Below, piece by piece: positions 2 through 49,282 of a stretch of 64,000 bases of DNA (position 1 is its first letter; each line of letters begins with the position of its first letter). The stretch spans positions 8,391-72,390 of the forward strand of contig JAFEAI010000244.1 of assembly GCA_018266475.1 (NCBI GenBank), given 5' to 3'. The notes beneath the pieces are model-generated. The model saw nothing but the letters and a program-made list of their open reading frames with translations, was not told the origin of the DNA and did no database searches. A program made the translations under genes and the position numbers. The stretch is from Bacteroidota bacterium (GTDB lineage Bacteria; Bacteroidota; Bacteroidia; Flavobacteriales_F; PHOS-HE28).

Positions 2-3000
2 ATGCTAACACCACTCGGCAATCGTACAGGAAACATCTTCGACCTCCTTCTCCCGCACCTTCAATCCTCCCCTTCGGCCCCGGCGATCACGGCAGGTGGC
101 ACCACCCTCTCCCGGGCCCAGATTGCCGCACAGGTATCCTGCATGGCCGGGCACCTGCACAAGCACGGTTTGGCACCGGGCCAAACCGTGGCCATCTGTC
201 TGGACCGCTCCCCGGAGCTGATCATCGCCGTGCTGGGCATCGTACAGGCCGGGGCGGCATACGTGCCCATCGACCCCGCATATCCTGTTGAGCGGATCGC
301 CGGCATGCTTGAAGATGCCAAGCCCCCGGTGGTGATCACCAGCAAGGAGCACCGGCACCTCTTCACAGGCACGGCGGCCAAAGTGCTGCTGATCGAGGAT
401 ATCGACCTCCTCACCCTCCCCCCCCTCTCCCAGGGAGAGTGGGCGCCCTGTCCTGCGACACCCGACGACCTGCTGTACGTGCTGTTCACCAGCGGCAGCA
501 CCGGCCGCCCCAAGGGCGTGGCCATGCACCACGCACCGCTCACCAACCTGATCCAATGGCAGCTGCGCACCAGTGTGTGCGGCGAGGGTGATCGCACCCT
601 GCAGTTCGCACCCATCAGTTTTGACGTGAGCTTCCAGGAGATCTTCACCACCTTCGCACAAGGCGGCACGCTGGTGCTGATCACCGATGAGGACCGCCTG
701 AACAGCACCCAGCTCCTGCGGAAGATCATCGCCGAGAAGATCAACCGAATCATCGTTCCCTTCGTGGCGCTGCAGTACTTGGCCGAAGCCGTGGAGCGTA
801 CCGGCGAAGTGCCTTCCACATTGAAAGAGGTTTTCACCAGCGGTGAGCAATTGAAGATCACCCCCGCGATCATCAACCTCTTCAAGCAACTGCCCGGTGT
901 GCGCTTCTGCAACCAGTATGGCCCCACCGAAGGCCACGTGGTGAGCGAGCTTGAGCTAAAAGGCGATCCATCCACCTGGCCCGCGCTGCCCAACATCGGC
1001 AAGGCCATCGACAACGTGAAGCTGCTCGTGCTTGATGAGCAGATGAAGCCGGTGAAGAAGGGTGAGGAAGGCGAGCTCTACCTCGGTGGTGCGTGCGTGG
1101 CCAAAGGCTACATCGGCCGTGATGACCTGACGGCGGAACGCTTCCTGGCGGATCCGTTCGTAAAGCCACCCTTCGGCTCCGCTCAGGGCAGGCTTTACAA
1201 GACCGGCGACCGCGCGGCGGAGCTGCCCAACGGCGAGATCGACTACAAGGGCCGCATCGATGGCCAAGTGAAGGTGCGCGGCTACCGCATTGAGCTGGGC
1301 GAAGTGGAAGTAGCCATGGAGAAACACCGTGCGGTGGAACAAGCCGTGGCCAACGTGCGGGAGGACCGTCCCGGATTGAAACGGCTGATCGGCTACTATG
1401 TGGCGAAGCAGGACGTGAGCGTGAACGAGCTGCGCAAGCACCTCGCTTCCCTCCTACCCGACTACATGGTGCCCTCGGCCTTCGTGGCGGTGAAAGAACT
1501 ACCGCGCACGCCAAGCGGCAAGATCGATCGCAAGGCCCTGCCCGCCCCCGATGTAAAACGCCCTGAATTGGACGTTGCGTTCGCCGCACCGCAAAGCGCC
1601 GTGCAGAAGACGCTCGCCAACGTGTGGGCCGATCTGCTCGGCATCGACCGCGTGGGCATCGACGACAACTTCTTCGACCTCGGCGGCAACTCACTGCTGA
1701 GCATCCAATGCGTGGCGCAGCTGGAAGGCCATGGTCTGAAACTGCCGATCGTGAAACTGTACCAGCATCCGACGGTGCGCGCGTGCGCGGCGTTCTTGGA
1801 AGACGATACGAACGCCGTATCGCCCGCCGAGATGGCGAAAGCCCGCGTAGGGGCGAGACATGTCTCGCCCGAAAAGCGGGACATCGCCATCATCGGCATG
1901 AGCGGCCGCTTCCCCGGTGCTGCCAACGTAGAGGAGCTATGGCTGAACCTGCTGGCCAAGAAGAACAGCATCAGCCGCTGGACGGCCGACGAGATCGACC
2001 CGAGCGTGCCCGCCGAGCTGCGCAACGACCCCGATTACGTGAAGGCGCGCGGCGTGATCGCCGACGCCGACAAGTTCGACGCGGGCTTTTTCGGCGTGAA
2101 CCCCAAGGTGGCCGCACTGATGGATCCACAACAGCGGGTATTCCTCGAAACGGCCTGGGCCGCGCTGGAGGATGCCGCATACGATCCCGCGCAATTCGCT
2201 GGCCTCATTGGCGTGTACGCCGGCATGGGCAACAACACCTATTACACGCGGAACGTCATCGGCCATCCCGAGCTCATCGAGCAAGTGGGCGATTTCCAGG
2301 TGATGACGGCCAACGAAAAGGACTACATCGCCACTCGGCTTGCGTTCGAGTTCGACCTGCGCGGACCCGCGATCAGCATGAACACCGCGTGCAGCACCTC
2401 GCTGGTAGCGATCGCACAAGCCTTCCAGGCCCTGCGCGCCGGCGAATGCGACATGGCGCTGGCCGGCGGCATCGCCATCACCGCGCCGATCAACAGCGGC
2501 ATCGTGTACAACGAGGGCGGCATGTACAGCCCCGACGGCAGCACGCGCACCTTCGATGCCGAGGGAAAGGGCACCAGCTTCAGCGATGGCGTGGGCATCA
2601 TCGTATTGAAGAGGCTGGATGATGCGATCCGCGACAACGACCACATCTACGCCACGATCAAAGGCGCCGCGCTGAACAACGACGGCAGCGACAAGGCCAG
2701 CTTCACCGCGCCCAGCGTGCGCGGGCAGGCCGAAGTGATCGCTATGGCACAGGCCGATGCAGGGGTGTCGCCGGATCAGATCAGCTACGTGGAAGCGCAC
2801 GGCACGGCCACGCCGCTTGGTGATCCCATTGAGGTGGAGGCGCTGACGTTGGCGTTCCGATCAGAAAATCAGAAAATCAGAAAATCAGAAAATGGAAATG
2901 CGCCACATTGCACCATCGGCTCCATCAAGAGCAACATCGGCCACCTTACCGCCGCCGCCGGTGCCGCAGGGGTGATCAAGACCGCACTCGCATTGCAGCA

Positions 3001-6000
3001 GGAGCAGATCCCTGCGAGCATAGGCTATGAAAAGCCGAACCCCGCGATCGACTTCGCGAACTCGCCGTTCCGCGTGGCGCAGGACAACATCGCCTGGCCG
3101 CGCACCGACGCACCGCGCATGGCGGGGGTGAGCAGCTTCGGCGTGGGCGGCACCAACGCGCACGTGATCATGGCGGAGCCGCCGGTGCTGGCAGCATCCG
3201 GCGCATCGCGCAGCAAGCAACTGTTCTTCCTCAGCGCAAAGAGCAAGACCAGCTTGGATGCCATGACGGAGAATTTCCGCCAGTGGCTTGCAGCGCACCC
3301 TGATGCTTCCCTTGCCGACGCCGCATACACGCTGCAAGTGGGCCGCCGTCACTTCAAACACCGCCGGTTGATCGTAGGTGGAAGTCACGGTGAAGTGATC
3401 GACGCGATCGCGAACAAGGACGCGCAGCTGATCGGCACACGCGAACTGCACGAGGCCGCACCGGGCGTGGTGTTCATGTTCCCCGGCCAAGGCTCGCAGT
3501 ATGTACACATGGGCCGCGACCTCTGCGAAAGCGAGCCGGTCTTCAAGCAGCATTTCGATCACTGCTGCGAGCTCTTCGGCAAGGAACTCGGCACCGATCT
3601 GAAGGCCATCATCTTCCCGAAAGCGGGTGAAGAAGAAAAGGCCGCCGGGCAACTGAAGCAGACCATCTACACGCAGGCTTCGCTTTTCACCATGCACTAC
3701 AGCCTGGCGAAACTGTGGATGTACTGGGGCATCACGCCCGATGCGATGATGGGCCACAGCATCGGCGAGTTCGCTGCGGCTTGTCTCGCTGGTGTGTTCT
3801 CATTGGAAGATGCCGTGAAGCTGGTGGCCAACCGCGGCCGCATGATGCAGGAACTGCCCGGCGGCAGCATGCTCAGCGTGCGCGCGACGGAGGAGGATGT
3901 AGCGAAGAAACTTCCCGCTGGCTGCTCGATCGCCGCCAACAATGGCACGCAATTGTGCGTGGCCAGCGGTCCGCATGAGGCGATCGCGAAGCTGCAAGCC
4001 GAACTGGAGAAAGAGGGCATCACGTGCAAGCTGCTCGTGACCAGCCACGCCTTCCACAGCCCGATGATGGACGCCATGGTGGCGCCGTACAAGAAGGTGG
4101 TGGAAAGCGTGAAGCTGAATGCGCCGCGCATTCCGATCATCAGCACGGTGACCGCCCAATGGCTGAAGGACGACGAGGCCGTATCACCCAAATACTGGAG
4201 CGACCACCTGCGTGCCACCGTGCGATTTGCACAAGCGGTGAAGTTCGCGTGGGACGATGCGAACAGGGTAATGCTGGAGGTAGGCCCGCGCACCACGGCC
4301 ACCACGCTGGCCCGCCAGCAAAGCAGCGATGCAAAGAAGCAAGCGGCGGTCCCTTCATTGGGCGATTCCGCAGGCAACGGCAACGAACTGGCGCAACTGC
4401 TGAAAGCCGTGGGCGGCCTGTGGCAGAGCGGCGTGCTGATCGACTGGAAGAAATTCCATGAGCGCGAGGAGCGCAGGCGGATCAGCTTGCCGACCTATGC
4501 TTTTGAACGGGTACGGCATTGGGTGGAACCGGTGGCCTTGCAGGGCGTAAATAGACATGATGGACGCGAATTGCCGTCCATCGCGTCCATTCCAGCGCCG
4601 CACACAGATGCGGGCCTTTCTCCCAAGGACCAACTGATCGCGCAGATCAAACATCTTCTGGAGGAAAGCTCCGGCCTGGAACTCGCCGAAGCCAGCAACG
4701 AGGAGACTTTCCTGGAGATGGGCCTCGACTCGCTCTTCCTCACGCAGGTGGCCACCTCGCTGAGCAAAAAGTTCGGCGTGAAGATCAGCTTTCGGCAGTT
4801 GAACGAGGAGCTGCCGAACCTGGAGAAATTGGCGGAACACTTTTTAGCGAATGGGGTGGGATCAGTTGTCAGTTCACAGTTGTCGGTTGTCAGTGCCCGG
4901 ACAACGGACAACCAACAACCAACAACTGCCTCCGCCCTCGAAGACGCCCCTGAACTGAAGAAAGCCTTCGGTGCCCAGGCGCGCATCAGCAAGGAAAAGG
5001 CGGACGACTTCACGCCGCAACAGCGCGCCTGGTTCACCGACTTCGTGAAGCGCTACACGGCCAAGACCGCCAAGAGCAAGGCTTTCACGCAGGAGAACAG
5101 GAAACCGATGGCCGACCCGCGCGTGGTCACAGGCTTCAAGCCGCAAACCAAGGAACTCACTTACCAGGTGGTGGTGGACCGCAGCAAGGGCTGCCACCTG
5201 TGGGACATCGACGGCAACGAGTATGTGGACATCCTCAGCGGCTTCGGCTCGTCGATGTTCGGCTATATGCCCGACTTCATCAAGGAAGCGTGCCACGACC
5301 AGCTTGAAAAGGGCACGGAGATCGGGCCCATGCACCCGCTTGCAGCGGAAGTATCGAAGTTGCTGTGCGAACTCACCGGAGCCGAGCGCGCGGCCGTTTG
5401 CAACACCGGCAGCGAGGCCGTGCTGGGCGCCATGCGCATGGCCCGCACGGTGACGGGCCGCAGCCTGATCATCTCCTTCAGCGGCAGCTACCACGGCATC
5501 AACGACGAGGTGATCCTCCGCGGCAGCAAAAGCCACAAGAGCTACCCCGGCGCGCCCGGCATCATGCCCGAGGCCGTGCATAACATGCTGGTGCTGGACT
5601 ACGGCACGCCCGAAAGCCTGGAGATCATCAAGCAGCACTGCCACGAAGCCGCCGCCGTGCTGGTGGAACCCGTGCAGAGCCGCCGCATGGAGTTCCGCCC
5701 CGTTGATTTCCTGCGCGAGGTGCGCCGCATCACGAAAGAGCACGGCACCGCGTTGATCTTCGATGAAGTGATCACCGGCTTCCGCATGCACCCGAACGGC
5801 GCACAGGGCCTCTTCGGCATCAAAGCCGACATCGGCACCTACGGCAAGGTGATCGGCGGTGGCATGCCCATCGGCGCCATGATCGGCAGCCGCCCGTGGA
5901 TGGACGCGCTGGACGGCGGCGATTGGCGCTTCGGCGACGACAGCGTGCCCGAAGCCGGAGTGACCTACTTCGCAGGCACGTTCGTGCGCCATCCGTTGAC

Positions 6001-6547
6001 GCTCGCCGCCATGAAGGCCTCACTGCTGTACATGAAACGTGAAGGCCCCGCCTTGCAGGAACGGCTCAACGGGCTCACCCAAGGCATGGTGGAACGCGCC
6101 AATGCGCTCTTCGACCGCTACCAGCTTCCGTACCGCTGGGTACACTTCGGCAGCGCATTCAAGACCAAGTACGACGAAAGCGTCAACTACACCGAGTTCT
6201 TCTTCATGCTGATGCGCCTGCATGGCGTGCATGTGCTGGACTTCCCGCACTTCCTCACCACGGCGCACACGGAAGCGGACGTGGAATTCATCCTCACCGC
6301 CCTGGAGAACACCTGCAAGGAATTGCGCAACAGCGGCTTCATGCCGGAGCGCACCTATCCCCTGGCCGTGGTCAACAGCACCTTGAACGGGCACGCCTTC
6401 AAGCCAAGTGAACTGGTGGTAGAGGCCAGTGAACCGCCCGTGCCCGGCGCCCGCCTGGGCCGTACGCAGGAAGGCGAGCCCGGCTGGTTTGTTCCCGACC
6501 GTGAGCGGCCGGGAAAATTCATTCAACTCGTGGAGCACGGACAATGA
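2..6547 (+). CDS. Hybrid NRPS-PKS megasynthase, 5'-truncated at window start. Domain order: A (partial) - PCP - KS - AT - ACP - class III PLP aminotransferase (AMT). No KR/DH/ER seen.
   Basis: ORF has no start codon at the window edge. A-domain cores LYVLFTSGSTGRPKGV (A3), NQYGPTE (A5), YKTGDRAAELPNGEIDYKGRIDGQVKVRGYRIELGEVE (A7/A8). PCP FFDLGGNSL (~nt 1665-1697). KS DIAIIGMSGRFPG, DTACSTSL (Cys codon ~2391), HGTATPLGDP. AT GHSIGEF (~3751-3771). ACP LGLDSLFLTQV (~4722-4742). C-terminal ~530 aa aminotransferase-III-like (DGNEYVDILSGFGSSMFGY, YGKVIGGGMPIGA with PLP-Lys candidate ~5845). Confidence 0.9.
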   Translation: MLTPLGNRTGNIFDLLLPHLQSSPSAPAITAGGTTLSRAQIAAQVSCMAGHLHKHGLAPGQTVAICLDRSPELIIAVLGIVQAGAAYVPIDPAYPVERIAGMLEDAKPPVVITSKEHRHLFTGTAAKVLLIEDIDLLTLPPLSQGEWAPCPATPDDLLYVLFTSGSTGRPKGVAMHHAPLTNLIQWQLRTSVCGEGDRTLQFAPISFDVSFQEIFTTFAQGGTLVLITDEDRLNSTQLLRKIIAEKINRIIVPFVALQYLAEAVERTGEVPSTLKEVFTSGEQLKITPAIINLFKQLPGVRFCNQYGPTEGHVVSELELKGDPSTWPALPNIGKAIDNVKLLVLDEQMKPVKKGEEGELYLGGACVAKGYIGRDDLTAERFLADPFVKPPFGSAQGRLYKTGDRAAELPNGEIDYKGRIDGQVKVRGYRIELGEVEVAMEKHRAVEQAVANVREDRPGLKRLIGYYVAKQDVSVNELRKHLASLLPDYMVPSAFVAVKELPRTPSGKIDRKALPAPDVKRPELDVAFAAPQSAVQKTLANVWADLLGIDRVGIDDNFFDLGGNSLLSIQCVAQLEGHGLKLPIVKLYQHPTVRACAAFLEDDTNAVSPAEMAKARVGARHVSPEKRDIAIIGMSGRFPGAANVEELWLNLLAKKNSISRWTADEIDPSVPAELRNDPDYVKARGVIADADKFDAGFFGVNPKVAALMDPQQRVFLETAWAALEDAAYDPAQFAGLIGVYAGMGNNTYYTRNVIGHPELIEQVGDFQVMTANEKDYIATRLAFEFDLRGPAISMNTACSTSLVAIAQAFQALRAGECDMALAGGIAITAPINSGIVYNEGGMYSPDGSTRTFDAEGKGTSFSDGVGIIVLKRLDDAIRDNDHIYATIKGAALNNDGSDKASFTAPSVRGQAEVIAMAQADAGVSPDQISYVEAHGTATPLGDPIEVEALTLAFRSENQKIRKSENGNAPHCTIGSIKSNIGHLTAAAGAAGVIKTALALQQEQIPASIGYEKPNPAIDFANSPFRVAQDNIAWPRTDAPRMAGVSSFGVGGTNAHVIMAEPPVLAASGASRSKQLFFLSAKSKTSLDAMTENFRQWLAAHPDASLADAAYTLQVGRRHFKHRRLIVGGSHGEVIDAIANKDAQLIGTRELHEAAPGVVFMFPGQGSQYVHMGRDLCESEPVFKQHFDHCCELFGKELGTDLKAIIFPKAGEEEKAAGQLKQTIYTQASLFTMHYSLAKLWMYWGITPDAMMGHSIGEFAAACLAGVFSLEDAVKLVANRGRMMQELPGGSMLSVRATEEDVAKKLPAGCSIAANNGTQLCVASGPHEAIAKLQAELEKEGITCKLLVTSHAFHSPMMDAMVAPYKKVVESVKLNAPRIPIISTVTAQWLKDDEAVSPKYWSDHLRATVRFAQAVKFAWDDANRVMLEVGPRTTATTLARQQSSDAKKQAAVPSLGDSAGNGNELAQLLKAVGGLWQSGVLIDWKKFHEREERRRISLPTYAFERVRHWVEPVALQGVNRHDGRELPSIASIPAPHTDAGLSPKDQLIAQIKHLLEESSGLELAEASNEETFLEMGLDSLFLTQVATSLSKKFGVKISFRQLNEELPNLEKLAEHFLANGVGSVVSSQLSVVSARTTDNQQPTTASALEDAPELKKAFGAQARISKEKADDFTPQQRAWFTDFVKRYTAKTAKSKAFTQENRKPMADPRVVTGFKPQTKELTYQVVVDRSKGCHLWDIDGNEYVDILSGFGSSMFGYMPDFIKEACHDQLEKGTEIGPMHPLAAEVSKLLCELTGAERAAVCNTGSEAVLGAMRMARTVTGRSLIISFSGSYHGINDEVILRGSKSHKSYPGAPGIMPEAVHNMLVLDYGTPESLEIIKQHCHEAAAVLVEPVQSRRMEFRPVDFLREVRRITKEHGTALIFDEVITGFRMHPNGAQGLFGIKADIGTYGKVIGGGMPIGAMIGSRPWMDALDGGDWRFGDDSVPEAGVTYFAGTFVRHPLTLAAMKASLLYMKREGPALQERLNGLTQGMVERANALFDRYQLPYRWVHFGSAFKTKYDESVNYTEFFFMLMRLHGVHVLDFPHFLTTAHTEADVEFILTALENTCKELRNSGFMPERTYPLAVVNSTLNGHAFKPSELVVEASEPPVPGARLGRTQEGEPGWFVPDRERPGKFIQLVEHGQ
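4862..4928. repeat. In-frame palindromic heptamer-repeat block (AGTTGTC/GGTTGTC units then reverse complement GACAACGGACAACCAACAACCAACAACTG) inside the NRPS-PKS ACP-AMT linker; encodes SQLSVVSARTTDNQQPTT.
   Basis: Direct reading: cagttgtcagttcacagttgtcggttgtcagtgcccggacaacggacaaccaacaaccaacaactg. Same heptamer family as the arrays at 32796-32892 and 35461-35480. Confidence 0.7.
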
Positions 6548-19767: not shown

Positions 19768-19846
19768 ACAGGGGTGCTGCGCCATCGGGGGGCAGGGCAG
19801 ACGCATCAAAAACCAAGCGATCAAAACATCGGCGTGAAAATCAAGG

Positions 19847-19955
19847 ATTTGAAGTTGGCCCTTCGGCTCCGCTCAGGGCAGTTCATGTTTATCATCCAGT
19901 CACTAACGAAACATTGCCCTGCGAAGCCGCTCCTCGGCCTCGCCCGAAGGGCCAA
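19847..19955. repeat. Intergenic inverted-repeat element: outer 10-bp IR GGCCCTTCGG / CCGAAGGGCC, inner CAGGGCA / TGCCCTG, AT-rich 45-nt loop, T6 run 19 nt downstream (19974-19979). Contains the 23-mer also found in the NRPS CDS.
   Basis: Direct reading of both arms. Lies in the 340-bp gap between the ABC exporter and the next gene. Confidence 0.45.
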
Positions 19956-20108
19956 CCAAGTACAGCATCGTGTTTTTTCAAGCATGGTGGGCATTCCTGT
20001 CCGTGATGCTATACTGGCTTGGCCAATTTGATGCGTTTGCCCTGCATCCGAGGTACAACCAATCGGCAAGTCGGCTTATGTTTAGGACCTTCCCCCAGCA
20101 CCGTATCC

Positions 20109-20651
20109 ATGAGGTCCTTGTTCCTTCCTGCCGCCCTCTCCATGCTGGTATCGTCCTTCACGTGCCAGGCACAGAACACGCCAACTTCCCAGGCGCATGG
20201 CTCTGACCTGTACGTCTATGGAACGGTAAAAACCTATGAAGAGCGCGATTCATTGCCCGGCGCTTCCATAGCAGTGTGCATTCCTGGCACAGATGGCAAC
20301 CTTGTGGTGATGAACACCAATCATCGCGGCCGGTACGCGATCGAGCTCAACAGGGACCATGTCTACCGCTTGTCCTTTTCGGCACCCGGGCGCGTGGGAA
20401 AATCCGTACTGATCGACGCGACCAACATCCCTGATTCCATTTGGGGCGAAGGATTTGCCATGAGCATCGATATCACCCTGTTCAAGGAAGACCCACGCAT
20501 TGATTTTTCAATCCTGAAGGAGGACATCGGCCGCGCACGCTACGATGCCGCGCAGGGTATGATCGCCTGGGACCTGGCATATACCGAACGGATCCGGCAG
20601 CAATTCGCGGAGTTGATGGACCGCTACAATGCCTCCCGCGGCGACAGGTGA
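20109..20651 (+). CDS. Secreted protein with carboxypeptidase-regulatory-like (CarbopepD_reg-type) beta-sandwich region.
   Basis: Signal peptide MRSLFLPAALSMLVSSFTCQAQ. VYGTVKTYEERDSLPGASIAV...NTNHRGRYAIEL pattern. Confidence 0.5.
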   Translation: MRSLFLPAALSMLVSSFTCQAQNTPTSQAHGSDLYVYGTVKTYEERDSLPGASIAVCIPGTDGNLVVMNTNHRGRYAIELNRDHVYRLSFSAPGRVGKSVLIDATNIPDSIWGEGFAMSIDITLFKEDPRIDFSILKEDIGRARYDAAQGMIAWDLAYTERIRQQFAELMDRYNASRGDR

Positions 20652-38886: not shown

Positions 38887-39720
38887 TCAGGGCGCGGTGA
38901 GGGTGCTGTCCATGGTGAGCCACACGTCCACCATGCCGCCGGGCCTGATCGTTTCCGCAGGCCCTGCTTGGGGGAACTGGCGCACCACGGTTGCCAACGC
39001 AGTATCGCAGCCGCTATTGCCGCAGCCCTTCACCTCCACCACCATGCCCAGGTTCAGCGAAGCCATGCCCAGCACAGCTTTCATTTCCGAGAAGCCCATT
39101 CCGCGCAGGTCGGGCACGGGCACGCCTTCGCCCCCTTCCCCCTGGCCCAGCACCAAGGTGATGGATTCCCCTTTGCGGATCCTGCTTTCCGCCGTTATCG
39201 GCTGCCCCTTGTACAACTGGGCCACCACGCAATCCAGGCAGGGATCGGGGCGGTATTCCAGCGCGGCCAGCTTCAGCCCCAGGATCTCCATCACGCTGAT
39301 CGCCTGGCGCTTGCTCAGGTTCACCAGGTCCGGCATGTTCAGCATTTTCGGCTGCGTGGCGTTCATCACCAAGTAGATGGTCCGGTCAGGCTTCACGTAC
39401 TGCCCCGCCTTCGGGTCCTGGTCCACCACGGTGCCCTTGGGCGCCTCATCGGTGTATACCGAATCGATCACCTCGGCCCGAAGGTCCAGTGCTTCCAGTG
39501 CTTGTGCGGCCGCATCAAAGTGCAGGGCCTTCAGCTCGGGCACTTCCACCTTTACATCATGGCGCGTATAGGCGCCCGCCCAAAGCCAGGCCGCCAAGAT
39601 CAGTGCTGCCGCCAGCACCAGCGGTCCCGCGATCAGGAAAAGGCGTCTTCCGGCCGTCATGCGCTGCCTGTGGCCATTGGGGCCGTTTTTTGGCAAGGCG
39701 CGAATATACTCCCCCGCCAT
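38887..39720 (-). CDS. PASTA-domain protein (N-terminal TM anchor, three PASTA-like repeats).
   Basis: Repeated ...VPDLxGM...A...L...GL... PASTA-like units. Alternative ATG start at 39660 (MTAGRRLFLIAG...). Confidence 0.65.
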   Translation of the reverse strand: MAGEYIRALPKNGPNGHRQRMTAGRRLFLIAGPLVLAAALILAAWLWAGAYTRHDVKVEVPELKALHFDAAAQALEALDLRAEVIDSVYTDEAPKGTVVDQDPKAGQYVKPDRTIYLVMNATQPKMLNMPDLVNLSKRQAISVMEILGLKLAALEYRPDPCLDCVVAQLYKGQPITAESRIRKGESITLVLGQGEGGEGVPVPDLRGMGFSEMKAVLGMASLNLGMVVEVKGCGNSGCDTALATVVRQFPQAGPAETIRPGGMVDVWLTMDSTLTAP

Positions 39721-39736
39721 CGGGCATCATCAACAG

Positions 39737-39965
39737 GACAGGGCTATAGCCTCTTAACACTGCGCCTGGCGGCGCATATCCAATACTTGTACGAACCACG
39801 GATCCACACGGATGGACACGGATCGCGAACCTCTCCGGGCATCGGGCTCAAAGTTGTGGCCCACTTCCCCCATCGCGCACTTATCCGTGTTTATCTGCGT
39901 CCATCCGTGGTTGGGAAATCGGAAAAATCGCGACCGCAGGGCGCGCAAGAGGCGATAGCCCTGTC
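39737..39965. repeat. 229-bp nested inverted-repeat element. Outer 19-bp IR GACAGGGCTATAGCCTCTT / AAGAGGCGATAGCCCTGTC (18/19). Inner arms 39796-39825 and 39881-39910 each carry two CACGGAT / ATCCGTG heptamers.
   Basis: Direct reading of both strands. Sits between the divergent PASTA gene and ddl. Confidence 0.5.
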
Positions 39966-40051
39966 AACAGGGTGCCGTTGGCACTTCCGGCGTGATCATT
40001 CCCGCAGTGCCCGCATCCCGCCAAACCTTTGGGCACATTCCTGCTCCCTCC

Positions 40052-41056
40052 ATGCCACTGCCCCTTGTCGCCATTTTCCGCGGCGGATATACCGGCGAGT
40101 CCGTCATCAGCCAAAAAAGCGCGCAGACCATGATGGACGCCATCGACACCTCCCGGTTCGATGCCGCTTTCGTTTCCGTAACCCCGGACGGCTGGGCCTG
40201 CCAGCGGGCCGATGGAGGCAATCTCCCGTTCGACCGCGGCCTCTTCACCGCCGACCGCGGCCACGGACCGGAACCCTTCGCCGCAGCACTGATCGCCATC
40301 CACGGCACCCCGGGCGAAGACGGCAAGCTACAGGGCTATTTGGACATGCTGGGCGTGCCCTACCAGACCGGCGGCGTGCTGAACATGGCCCTCACCATGA
40401 GCAAATACGGCACTACGGCCTTGCTCCGCCAGCTCGGCTTTCCCGTGGCCGCCTCCATCCGCGTACACCGCCACCAGCACGATGCCGCACAGCGCATCCT
40501 GGCGGAAGTGGGCCTGCCCTGCTTCGTGAAGCCGGACAACAGCGGCAGCAGCCTCGGCATCAGCAAGGTGAAAACCGGCGGGGAGCTTGGTCCCGCACTG
40601 GAAAAAGCATTCACGGAAGATACCTTGGTGATGTGCGAACGCGCCGTGAAAGGCCGCGAGCTCACCTGCGGCGTGATGGACCTGGGCGGAAAGACGCGCG
40701 CCCTGCCCGTGTGCGAGATCCGCACCACCCACGAGTTCTTCGACTATGAGGCCAAGTACCACGCCGCCGACACCCAGGAGCTTGTGCCCGCGCCCATTCC
40801 GGATGAGGTGGCCGCGGTGGTGCAGCAGCGTTCCGAGGCCATCTTCCAAGCCCTCAACTGCCATGGCCTGGTGCGCATAGACCACTTTTGGCTGGAAGGA
40901 CAAGGCGACGGCAAGGAGGTGGTCACCATTGAGGTAAACACGGTGCCGGGCTTCACGCCCGTGAGCATCTATCCGCGCATGCTGAAGGCCGCGGGAATGC
41001 CGGTGGAAGAGGCGGTGAACGGGTTGGTGGAGGGGATGGTTCAGCGGCAGGGTTGA
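40052..41056 (+). CDS. ddl: D-alanine--D-alanine ligase.
   Basis: ATP-grasp fold with CFVKPDNSGSSLGISKV and C-terminal NTVPGFTPVSIYPRM motifs. Start at the internal ATG giving MPLPLVAIFRGGYTGE. Confidence 0.9.
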   Translation: MPLPLVAIFRGGYTGESVISQKSAQTMMDAIDTSRFDAAFVSVTPDGWACQRADGGNLPFDRGLFTADRGHGPEPFAAALIAIHGTPGEDGKLQGYLDMLGVPYQTGGVLNMALTMSKYGTTALLRQLGFPVAASIRVHRHQHDAAQRILAEVGLPCFVKPDNSGSSLGISKVKTGGELGPALEKAFTEDTLVMCERAVKGRELTCGVMDLGGKTRALPVCEIRTTHEFFDYEAKYHAADTQELVPAPIPDEVAAVVQQRSEAIFQALNCHGLVRIDHFWLEGQGDGKEVVTIEVNTVPGFTPVSIYPRMLKAAGMPVEEAVNGLVEGMVQRQG

Positions 41057-48889: not shown

Positions 48890-48939
48890 CCGGTTCCAGG
48901 CCTTTGGAGCCTATCGCGCCAAATGGGCGCGGCATCCAC

Positions 48940-49079
48940 TATTGAGTCGGCACAAAATGATTGACGATTCGACCTTGTGAAATTTCCTTGATGATCTGGC
49001 GAGGGGCTTCGGCTCCGCTCAGCCCAGTGTATCTGATTACTTTGCAGACAACCGTCAACTATTCAAGGCCGACTCAATA
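48940..49079. repeat. Intergenic IR element: 12-bp IR TATTGAGTCGGC / GCCGACTCAATA flanking a 16-nt core CTTCGGCTCCGCTCAG (49007-49022) shared with 1169-1191 and 19849-19871. Followed by GNRA hairpin ATGCGCC-gcaa-GGCGCAT (49199-49216).
   Basis: Direct reading; in the 393-bp gap upstream of the FkbM gene. Confidence 0.4.
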
Positions 49080-49282
49080 TCCACAACCGCAGATGCCCCC
49101 CGGTGCCTGCCGGAGGAACGCAGATGGCCTGGCTGAAAAACCGGGATGAAGCACTTTTCCTTGATCCGTATGGATCCGTGGTTCAAGTCCGTTTGCGAAT
49201 GCGCCGCAAGGCGCATGCATAAAACCCGATTGCCCTGACCTGGTTTTACTGCCACGCCTGGTGGCGAGGTAACTTTGCCCGG

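Follow-up and report, generated by a model that had tools for sequence, protein, structure and literature searches.

A palindromic 225-bp element between a PASTA-domain gene and ddl in a Bacteroidota genome is very probably a MITE with ISAs1-type ends

Results

The locus and the anatomy of the element

We analysed a 64-kb window, that is, the whole stretch of 64,000 nucleotides taken from one contig of a Bacteroidota assembly, whose gene set at the locus studied suggests a Bacteroidota genome with a G+C content of about 63%. A palindrome had been placed between a divergent PASTA gene and ddl by a sequence-only reading of this DNA, and this was confirmed: a long, imperfect palindrome occupies positions 39737-39965, within a 391-bp spacer between the two divergent genes. 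The start codon of the PASTA gene lies 78 bp from the element and that of ddl 88 bp from it. Farther along, the PASTA operon contains a gene for an RluD-type pseudouridine synthase, as well as a protein with a weak match, below the Pfam cut-off, to a type-IX-secretion C-terminal sorting domain. The features of the locus are as follows.

38887-39660, minus strand: gene for a PASTA-domain protein (Pfam PF03793, E = 2.5e-26)
39730-39738, no strand: left target-site duplication, 9 bp, TCAACAGGA; its final base is unlike the target, and the junction is common to all filled alleles
39739-39755, plus strand: left terminal inverted repeat, 17 bp, CAGGGCTATAGCCTCTT, which also ends 13 other short elements
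39761-39776, plus strand: small subterminal G+C hairpin, TGCGCC-TGGC-GGCGCA, read off the sequence
39797-39823, plus strand: left CACGGAT array, three units spaced 10 bp apart (motif search and TRF)
39824-39882, no strand: central non-palindromic spacer, the loop of the predicted hairpin
39883-39909, minus strand: right array mirroring the left, ATCCGTG, degenerate ATCTGCG and ATCCGTG (sequence comparison)
39947-39963, minus strand: right terminal inverted repeat, AAGAGGCGATAGCCCTG, reverse complement CAGGGCTATCGCCTCTT
39964-39972, no strand: right target-site duplication, TCAACAGGG, same as the unoccupied target
40052-41056, plus strand: ddl, D-alanine-D-alanine ligase (Pfam PF07478, E = 3.1e-52, plus PF01820)

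The element proper runs from 39739 to 39963 (225 bp). It had been described as bounded by a 19-bp terminal inverted repeat, and the 19-nt arms at 39737-39755 and 39947-39965 are indeed complementary at 18/19 positions, but the true repeat is 17 bp long, begins CAGGGC and is complementary at 16/17 positions; the outer GA...TC of the 19-mer is part of the target-site duplication, as shown by other copies. The inner inverted arms said to be enclosed by this repeat are present (39794-39823 and 39883-39912, 30 nt, 80% complementary), and the identity of the two arms over their whole length is about 64%. A lower-GC interior had also been reported; the dip exists but is only mild, at 0.55-0.60 against 0.61-0.68 in the flanks. 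Stop-free open frames in the copies of the element reach 66-79 codons in a frame that differs between copies, and no Pfam-scale gene fits in 225 bp. The 19-mer, searched with up to three mismatches, had no further match in the 64-kb window (shuffles expect 0), and there was no second intact copy with these ends in the same window.

Filled and empty alleles

A search of public assemblies for exact matches to the PASTA and Ddl proteins recovered two kinds of metagenome contig. In five independent contigs (L004, L005, L006, L012 and L013) the spacer between ddl and the PASTA gene was 157 bp, not 391 bp. These empty alleles encode an identical PASTA protein, several of them an identical Ddl too, and their flanks are 98-100% identical to the window. 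The empty site reads CATCA-TCAACAGGG-TGCC, with the target present once, whereas the filled site reads CATCA-TCAACAGGA-[225 bp]-TCAACAGGG-TGCC; the difference in spacer length, 234 bp, is thus the 225-bp element plus a 9-bp target duplication. Both the flanking direct duplications and the relatives had been put forward as checks on a MITE, and the outcome was positive on each count: a 9-bp duplication (TCAACAGGA / TCAACAGGG) flanks the element, and near-identical strains carry empty sites. The left copy of the duplication is one base off the target (A for G) in all filled haplotypes, most simply a later substitution, or else an 8-bp duplication with one added base.

The filled alleles (L001-L003 and L007-L011) were 99.3-100% identical to the window, and all of these contigs break off inside the element, at 39778, 39815 or 39934, which is how assembly graphs are expected to behave at a sequence that the sample also contains elsewhere. 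Since filled and empty alleles are both near-identical to the window, the insertion is polymorphic within one species-level population. From the assembly breaks, together with a degenerate solo arm at 49160-49237, we infer that the genome of the window holds multiple copies of the element.

Other copies and subfamilies

Further copies of the terminal repeat, which had been proposed as a check for a MITE, were found in related genomes and in metagenomes. When genomes, one for each species, were scanned with the 19-mer, which is biased towards 'TC' flanks, nine loci came up, of which four were real (L014, L015, L016 and L018); all four are Flavobacteriales/Bacteroidetes MAGs and appear to come from activated sludge. 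The others (L017 and L019-L022) were chance matches inside genes or in unrelated sequence, with no partner repeat. Metagenomes were scanned with the corrected 17-mer, CAGGGCTATMGCCTCTT. Most of the metagenome matches (112/134) had no partner and were chance matches or truncated ends, and two apparent pairs, L118 and L132, were discarded for want of a duplication.

There were 13 further distinct short elements of 157-553 bp with the same 17-bp ends, carried by Flavobacteriales/Bacteroidota contigs that appear to derive from activated sludge. The complete elements with partner repeats, the window's included, numbered 15 (157-553 bp), and 14 of these have perfect or one-mismatch flanking duplications of 8-10 bp, L096 having a partial one only. 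The duplication is GTGTACAGGA on both sides in L016 and TCCAGGACC in L018, and further examples among the short elements are GATCCTCACA, GTTCGGCA and CGACTGATCA. A Tn3- or Tn7-like interpretation, with the 19-bp repeat and a 5-bp duplication (AACAG), was rejected on these data: the other copies start with CAGGGC and their duplications are 8-10 bp long. The Tn3 family, parent of the TIMEs considered below, has 38-bp ends and makes 5-bp duplications. An apparent CAGGR target preference was seen only in loci from the biased 19-mer and in none of the unbiased set, and we make no claim for it.

The interiors of the elements fall into about five unrelated groups, A to E. Group A is the type found in the window and comprises L018 4975-5199 (83% identity to the window element), L029 (86%) and L077 (76-78%), with truncated copies in L106 (90%, partial) and L028 (82%, partial); no homologue of ddl or of the PASTA gene is encoded at the loci of the type-A copies. 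Besides these three full and two partial copies, ten distinct elements with the same ends lie on other contigs. Groups B, C and E have interiors built on hairpins of the form TGCGACCC-n-GGGTCG, while group D (L096 and L138) has one arm in common with A, consisting of the terminal repeat, the G+C mini-hairpin and CACGGAT repeats. The mini-hairpin module after the terminal repeat is also present in L029, L106, L096, L138 and the solo arm at 49160-49237. The central spacer (39824-39882) is the most variable part between copies, save for a conserved ATCG..CAAAG core.

In the other subfamilies the hairpins, TGCGACCC-(4-6 nt)-GGGTCG, usually stand 20-65 nt from each end (L014 2604-3156, L016 347-593, L018 4722-4965, L025, L051, L057, L061 and L079). 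A REP-like hairpin of the form GCGACCC-n-GGGTCG had no match in the 64-kb window.

Three different MITEs stand head to tail in L018 (4476-5208), belonging respectively to a second end family, to subfamily B and to subfamily A. They are separated by the same 9 bp, TCCAGGACC, which points to repeated insertion into one and the same target beside an existing end, and arrays like this one could be the source of chimeric subfamilies such as D.

The probable parent insertion sequence

We found the same 17-bp end on a second kind of repeat. In the sample Ga0209573, and in the MAG contig L015, a repeat that begins with it is cut off by the contig end after 75-157 nt (L055, L056, L059, L065, L069, L072, L081, L083, L092, L093, L122, L128 and L129 from Ga0209573, and L015 1-142). 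One kind of end, X, leads into ATG ACA GTC TTC GCG CAG TTC TCC GAG ATC CAA, the start of an ORF (MTVFAQFSEIQ). The other, Y, read on the inward strand, encodes ADQNMAIVRRTALNMCRKHHDPAKSLSRKRMTAARRNDYLDLLLGIKRR followed by a stop codon (C-terminus ...RKRMTAARRNDYLDLLLGIKRR*). When X and Y contigs are matched by their outer flanks, 9-10 bp duplications emerge at no fewer than four sites (AGACCGGAGC, GGCGGTTCCC, CAGCGCATG and CTGGGGGCGG), so X and Y are the two ends of one multi-copy insertion sequence. The 17-mer of the MITE's left end (with A/C at position 10) forms both ends of this insertion sequence, and the 17-bp ends of MITE and insertion sequence are identical. Past the end the two share nothing, and their unrelated subterminal sequences indicate that the interior of the MITE is no deletion remnant of that insertion sequence.

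The family of the parent was approached through its 49-residue C-terminus. A tblastn search against plasmids gave six weak matches (E = 0.08-0.2 for those annotated), and all five annotated matches are to an 'ISAs1 family transposase', aligned at its extreme C-terminus. Compared pairwise with the Stanieria protein, the fragment aligned at E 1e-8 with residues 330-375 of 375, and the F-S-x-I-x-D pattern at the parent's N-terminus resembles HFSKLTDPR of the same ISAs1 protein. Hallmarks of the ISAs1 family (ISfinder) are ends of CAGGG and target duplications of 8-10 bp. Two annotated ISAs1 elements begin CAGGGCAAACGC (L143) and CAGGGCTCCGAA (L144), both starting CAGGGC, and the first bases of the window element are CAGGGCT; of the short elements, 14/15 are flanked by 8-, 9- or 10-bp duplications, as are 4/4 of the paired insertion-sequence sites. 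On the strength of 49 C-terminal and 12 N-terminal residues, the parent is probably a member of the ISAs1 family.

Other searches for the parent gave less. The 49-residue fragment had no Pfam or NCBIfam match and no match in a collection of 5.8 billion proteins, blastn searches of plasmids with the insertion-sequence end and with the MITE gave no match, and no full-length copy was present among the loci fetched. A scan of viral contigs returned chance matches only.

These data bear on whether the element could be a palindrome of the REP/BIME type, spread by a RAYT (an IS200/IS605-like tyrosine transposase), or some other non-DDE repeat. Such an origin would suit the palindromic build, the intergenic site and the small G+C hairpins of other subfamilies (TGCGACCC-n-GGGTCG, for example). 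REPs, however, create neither target duplications nor terminal inverted repeats, and here 14/15 elements have clear 8-10 bp duplications together with 17-bp terminal inverted repeats; moreover, the same ends flank a transposase-like ORF the C-terminus of which matches ISAs1-family DDE transposases. We consider a REP-like origin extremely unlikely.

The CACGGAT units

The sequence-only reading had counted four CACGGAT iterons, two per arm and in alternating orientation. The layout is different, with three direct units on the left arm and three inverted ones on the right. The left units start at 39797, 39807 and 39817 and are tandem (TRF period 10, 2.8 copies), and the right arm has exact ATCCGTG at 39883 and 39903 and a degenerate ATCTGCG at 39893. 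Five exact copies thus lie within 116 bp, against 0.018 expected from the window background.

Between copies of the element the units are not constant. The left array is identical in L029 and L106, degenerate in L018 (CTACGGAT / CACCGAA / CACGAAT) and broken by a 15-bp insertion in L077. The inner two units of the right arm differ between copies (ATCAGTG, ATCGGTG and ATCCGTG), and with the exception of L018 these changes occur without matching changes on the left arm. The motif is missing from three of the five subfamilies and from the ends of the parent insertion sequence. We therefore treat the CACGGAT repeats as probable passenger sequence of one or two subfamilies, decaying between copies.

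An operator or iteron array had been offered as one reading of the palindrome, in which a protein bound to the helically phased CACGGAT units would co-regulate the PASTA-rluD operon and ddl. Three left-arm units at exactly 10-bp spacing, mirrored on the right, strongly enriched and situated between two divergent promoters, are what such a reading would predict. Nevertheless, the array came with a mobile element, strains with the same genes and an identical PASTA protein do without it, and the same array occurs in copies that have no ddl or PASTA gene nearby; its units are unconserved (degenerate in L018 and freely varying on the right arm), and three of the five subfamilies and the parent's ends lack the motif altogether. 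An operator for these genes is thus very unlikely.

Predicted fold and promoter signals

The 243 nt around the element were predicted to fold as one long imperfect hairpin on either strand, with energies of -115.7 kcal/mol (z = -7.95) for the plus strand and -116 kcal/mol (z = -7.05) for the minus strand. A consensus fold of four copies keeps the hairpin, mainly by conservation of sequence: the covariation term is only -0.81 kcal/mol, with double changes in 4/70 pairs. No Rfam covariance model matched at gathering score anywhere in the 64-kb window. A scan of the element found no sigma-70-like promoter or terminator in it, and the Bacteroidota promoter box TAnnTTTG is absent from it.

The very stable folding of both strands and the retention of the hairpin in four copies could be expected of a structured regulatory RNA, as had also been proposed, whether a small RNA or a cis-regulatory one, with ddl or the PASTA operon carrying a long hairpin in its 5' leader. 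Yet the two strands fold equally well, as a DNA palindrome would, with almost no covariation, no matching Rfam family and no promoter-like or terminator-like signal, and the element is missing in strains with the same genes while its copies lie in unrelated places. We regard a regulatory RNA as exceedingly improbable; the long hairpin is best explained as a result of the palindromic build and not as a selected RNA fold.

Related elements elsewhere in the window

A second ISAs1-type MITE, of 252 bp and with a different end family, occupies 19793-20044 of the window, between an ABC-transporter gene and the ORF that comes next. It is bounded by CAGGGCAGACGCATCAAA and, as reverse complement, CAGGGCAAACGCATCAAAT, one end being nearly identical to that of the annotated ISAs1 element on the Stanieria plasmid NC_019765, and its 10-bp duplication is degenerate (CATCGGGGGG / CATCCGAGGT). 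A homologue lies at L018 4476-4712. The second MITE is also present in a strain 98.6% identical to the window (L243 2369-2858 against window 19768-20257), in which the similarity extends precisely as far as the right boundary of the MITE (20045) and gives way there to different DNA, a sign that a rearrangement may have taken place, or that gene content may differ, at the edge of the element.

A 23-nt stretch of its interior (19851-19873, CCCTTCGGCTCCGCTCAGGGCAG) is repeated exactly at 1163-1185, where it encodes ..PFGSAQGR.. in a 2181-codon ORF (2-6547) that around this point resembles an AMP-binding enzyme, and 16 nt of it recur at 49007-49022. So long a recurrence is well beyond what chance would give.

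The solo arm at 49160-49237 is a degenerate arm of the CACGGAT-type element and lies in a 393-bp spacer (48890-49282). It reads GATCCGTATGGATCCGTGGTT, then a hairpin, ATGCGCC-GCAA-GGCGCAT, then ...CCCGATTGCCCTG, and is 74% identical to the left arm of the element over 82 nt. A partner end was looked for and none was found.

Discussion

We conclude that positions 39739-39963 are, with high probability, a 225-bp non-autonomous transposable element (MITE) with the ends of an ISAs1-type insertion sequence. Other copies, flanking duplications and empty sites bear out the MITE option among those first proposed. The element is shorter than 600 bp and has no transposase gene, it has terminal repeats, a target duplication and an empty site, it exists in multiple copies, and its ends are those of an insertion sequence.

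In the mechanism that we propose, an ISAs1-family DDE transposase, supplied in trans, would recognise the two 17-bp ends (CAGGGCTATMGCCTCTT) and insert the element through staggered cuts 8-10 bp apart. The element entered the 157 bp that separate the PASTA gene from ddl and duplicated the 9-bp target TCAACAGGG, which lies 78 bp upstream of the PASTA start codon and 80-88 bp upstream of that of ddl. The transposase of the parent insertion sequence presumably moves the MITE, judging from the ends that they share. The interior (the G+C mini-hairpin, the three 10-bp CACGGAT units and their mirror image) would be a passenger, and would define one subfamily in a larger group of MITEs with only the ends in common. 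Because both alleles are common beside ddl, presumed to be an essential gene, the insertion is probably neutral or nearly so for the expression of ddl and the PASTA gene.

Bacterial MITEs are well known and include Correia/NEMIS in Neisseria, Nezha in cyanobacteria, RUP in Streptococcus pneumoniae and the MaeMITEs of Microcystis (PMC2779907). Like these, the window element is short, non-coding, intergenic and multi-copy, with terminal repeats, target duplications and ends in common with an autonomous insertion sequence. Unlike them, it belongs to another sequence family and has a probable parent of the ISAs1 type (CAGGGC, 8-10 bp duplication), and one 17-bp end serves about five subfamilies with unrelated interiors. 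BrickBuilt, a MITE of Porphyromonas gingivalis, holds an internal minisatellite (PMC4596501). The two are alike in being Bacteroidota MITEs with short tandem repeats in the interior, whereas the tandem unit here is 10 bp long, is present in only three copies and is mirrored on the other arm. The TIMEs, which derive from Tn3, are non-autonomous, keep nothing of the transposon except its terminal repeats and are able to build mosaics (PMC4133298), and the window element resembles them in being non-autonomous and in having only the terminal repeats in common with a transposon.

The ISAs1 family comprises ISAs1, IS1358 and the H-repeat of E. coli, and members are annotated on plasmids of Stanieria (NC_019765) and Azospirillum (NZ_CP029358). 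The window element has in common with this family the CAGGGC ends and the 8-10 bp duplications, and the C-terminus of the putative parent aligns with the last 46 residues of an annotated ISAs1 transposase. Unlike ISAs1 elements, the window element has no transposase, and past CAGGGC the repeats of the two annotated examples are not the same as its own. In the literature that we searched we found no paper describing an ISAs1-derived MITE, although such an absence is weak evidence. The element works like a bacterial MITE, a known kind. Three features lift it slightly above the routine: a population polymorphism at the promoter of cell-wall genes, one end serving about five interiors, and the triple tandem insertion in L018.

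A further possibility concerns the elements themselves. The mirrored, helically phased CACGGAT arrays are candidate sites for a DNA-binding protein encoded by the host or by a transposon, and MITEs of types A and D might then serve as portable operators, or the hairpin as a portable RNA element. We think this very unlikely. If it were true, strains of a single natural population would differ heritably in how they express cell-wall genes, owing to the insertion polymorphism at the divergent promoter of ddl and the PASTA gene.

In genome annotations this region should be described as an inserted mobile element, and not as a regulatory site for ddl or the PASTA operon. The insertion accounts for the assembly breaks at this spot in many metagenomes. 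To our knowledge the ISAs1 family has been poorly studied mechanistically, and the short, defined substrates described here, for which filled and empty sites exist in nature, would lend themselves to ISAs1 assays. In the population sampled, the insertion is so recent that strains at least 99% identical still differ in its presence, and it adds 234 bp between the upstream regions of two cell-wall genes, a natural test of its effect on their expression.
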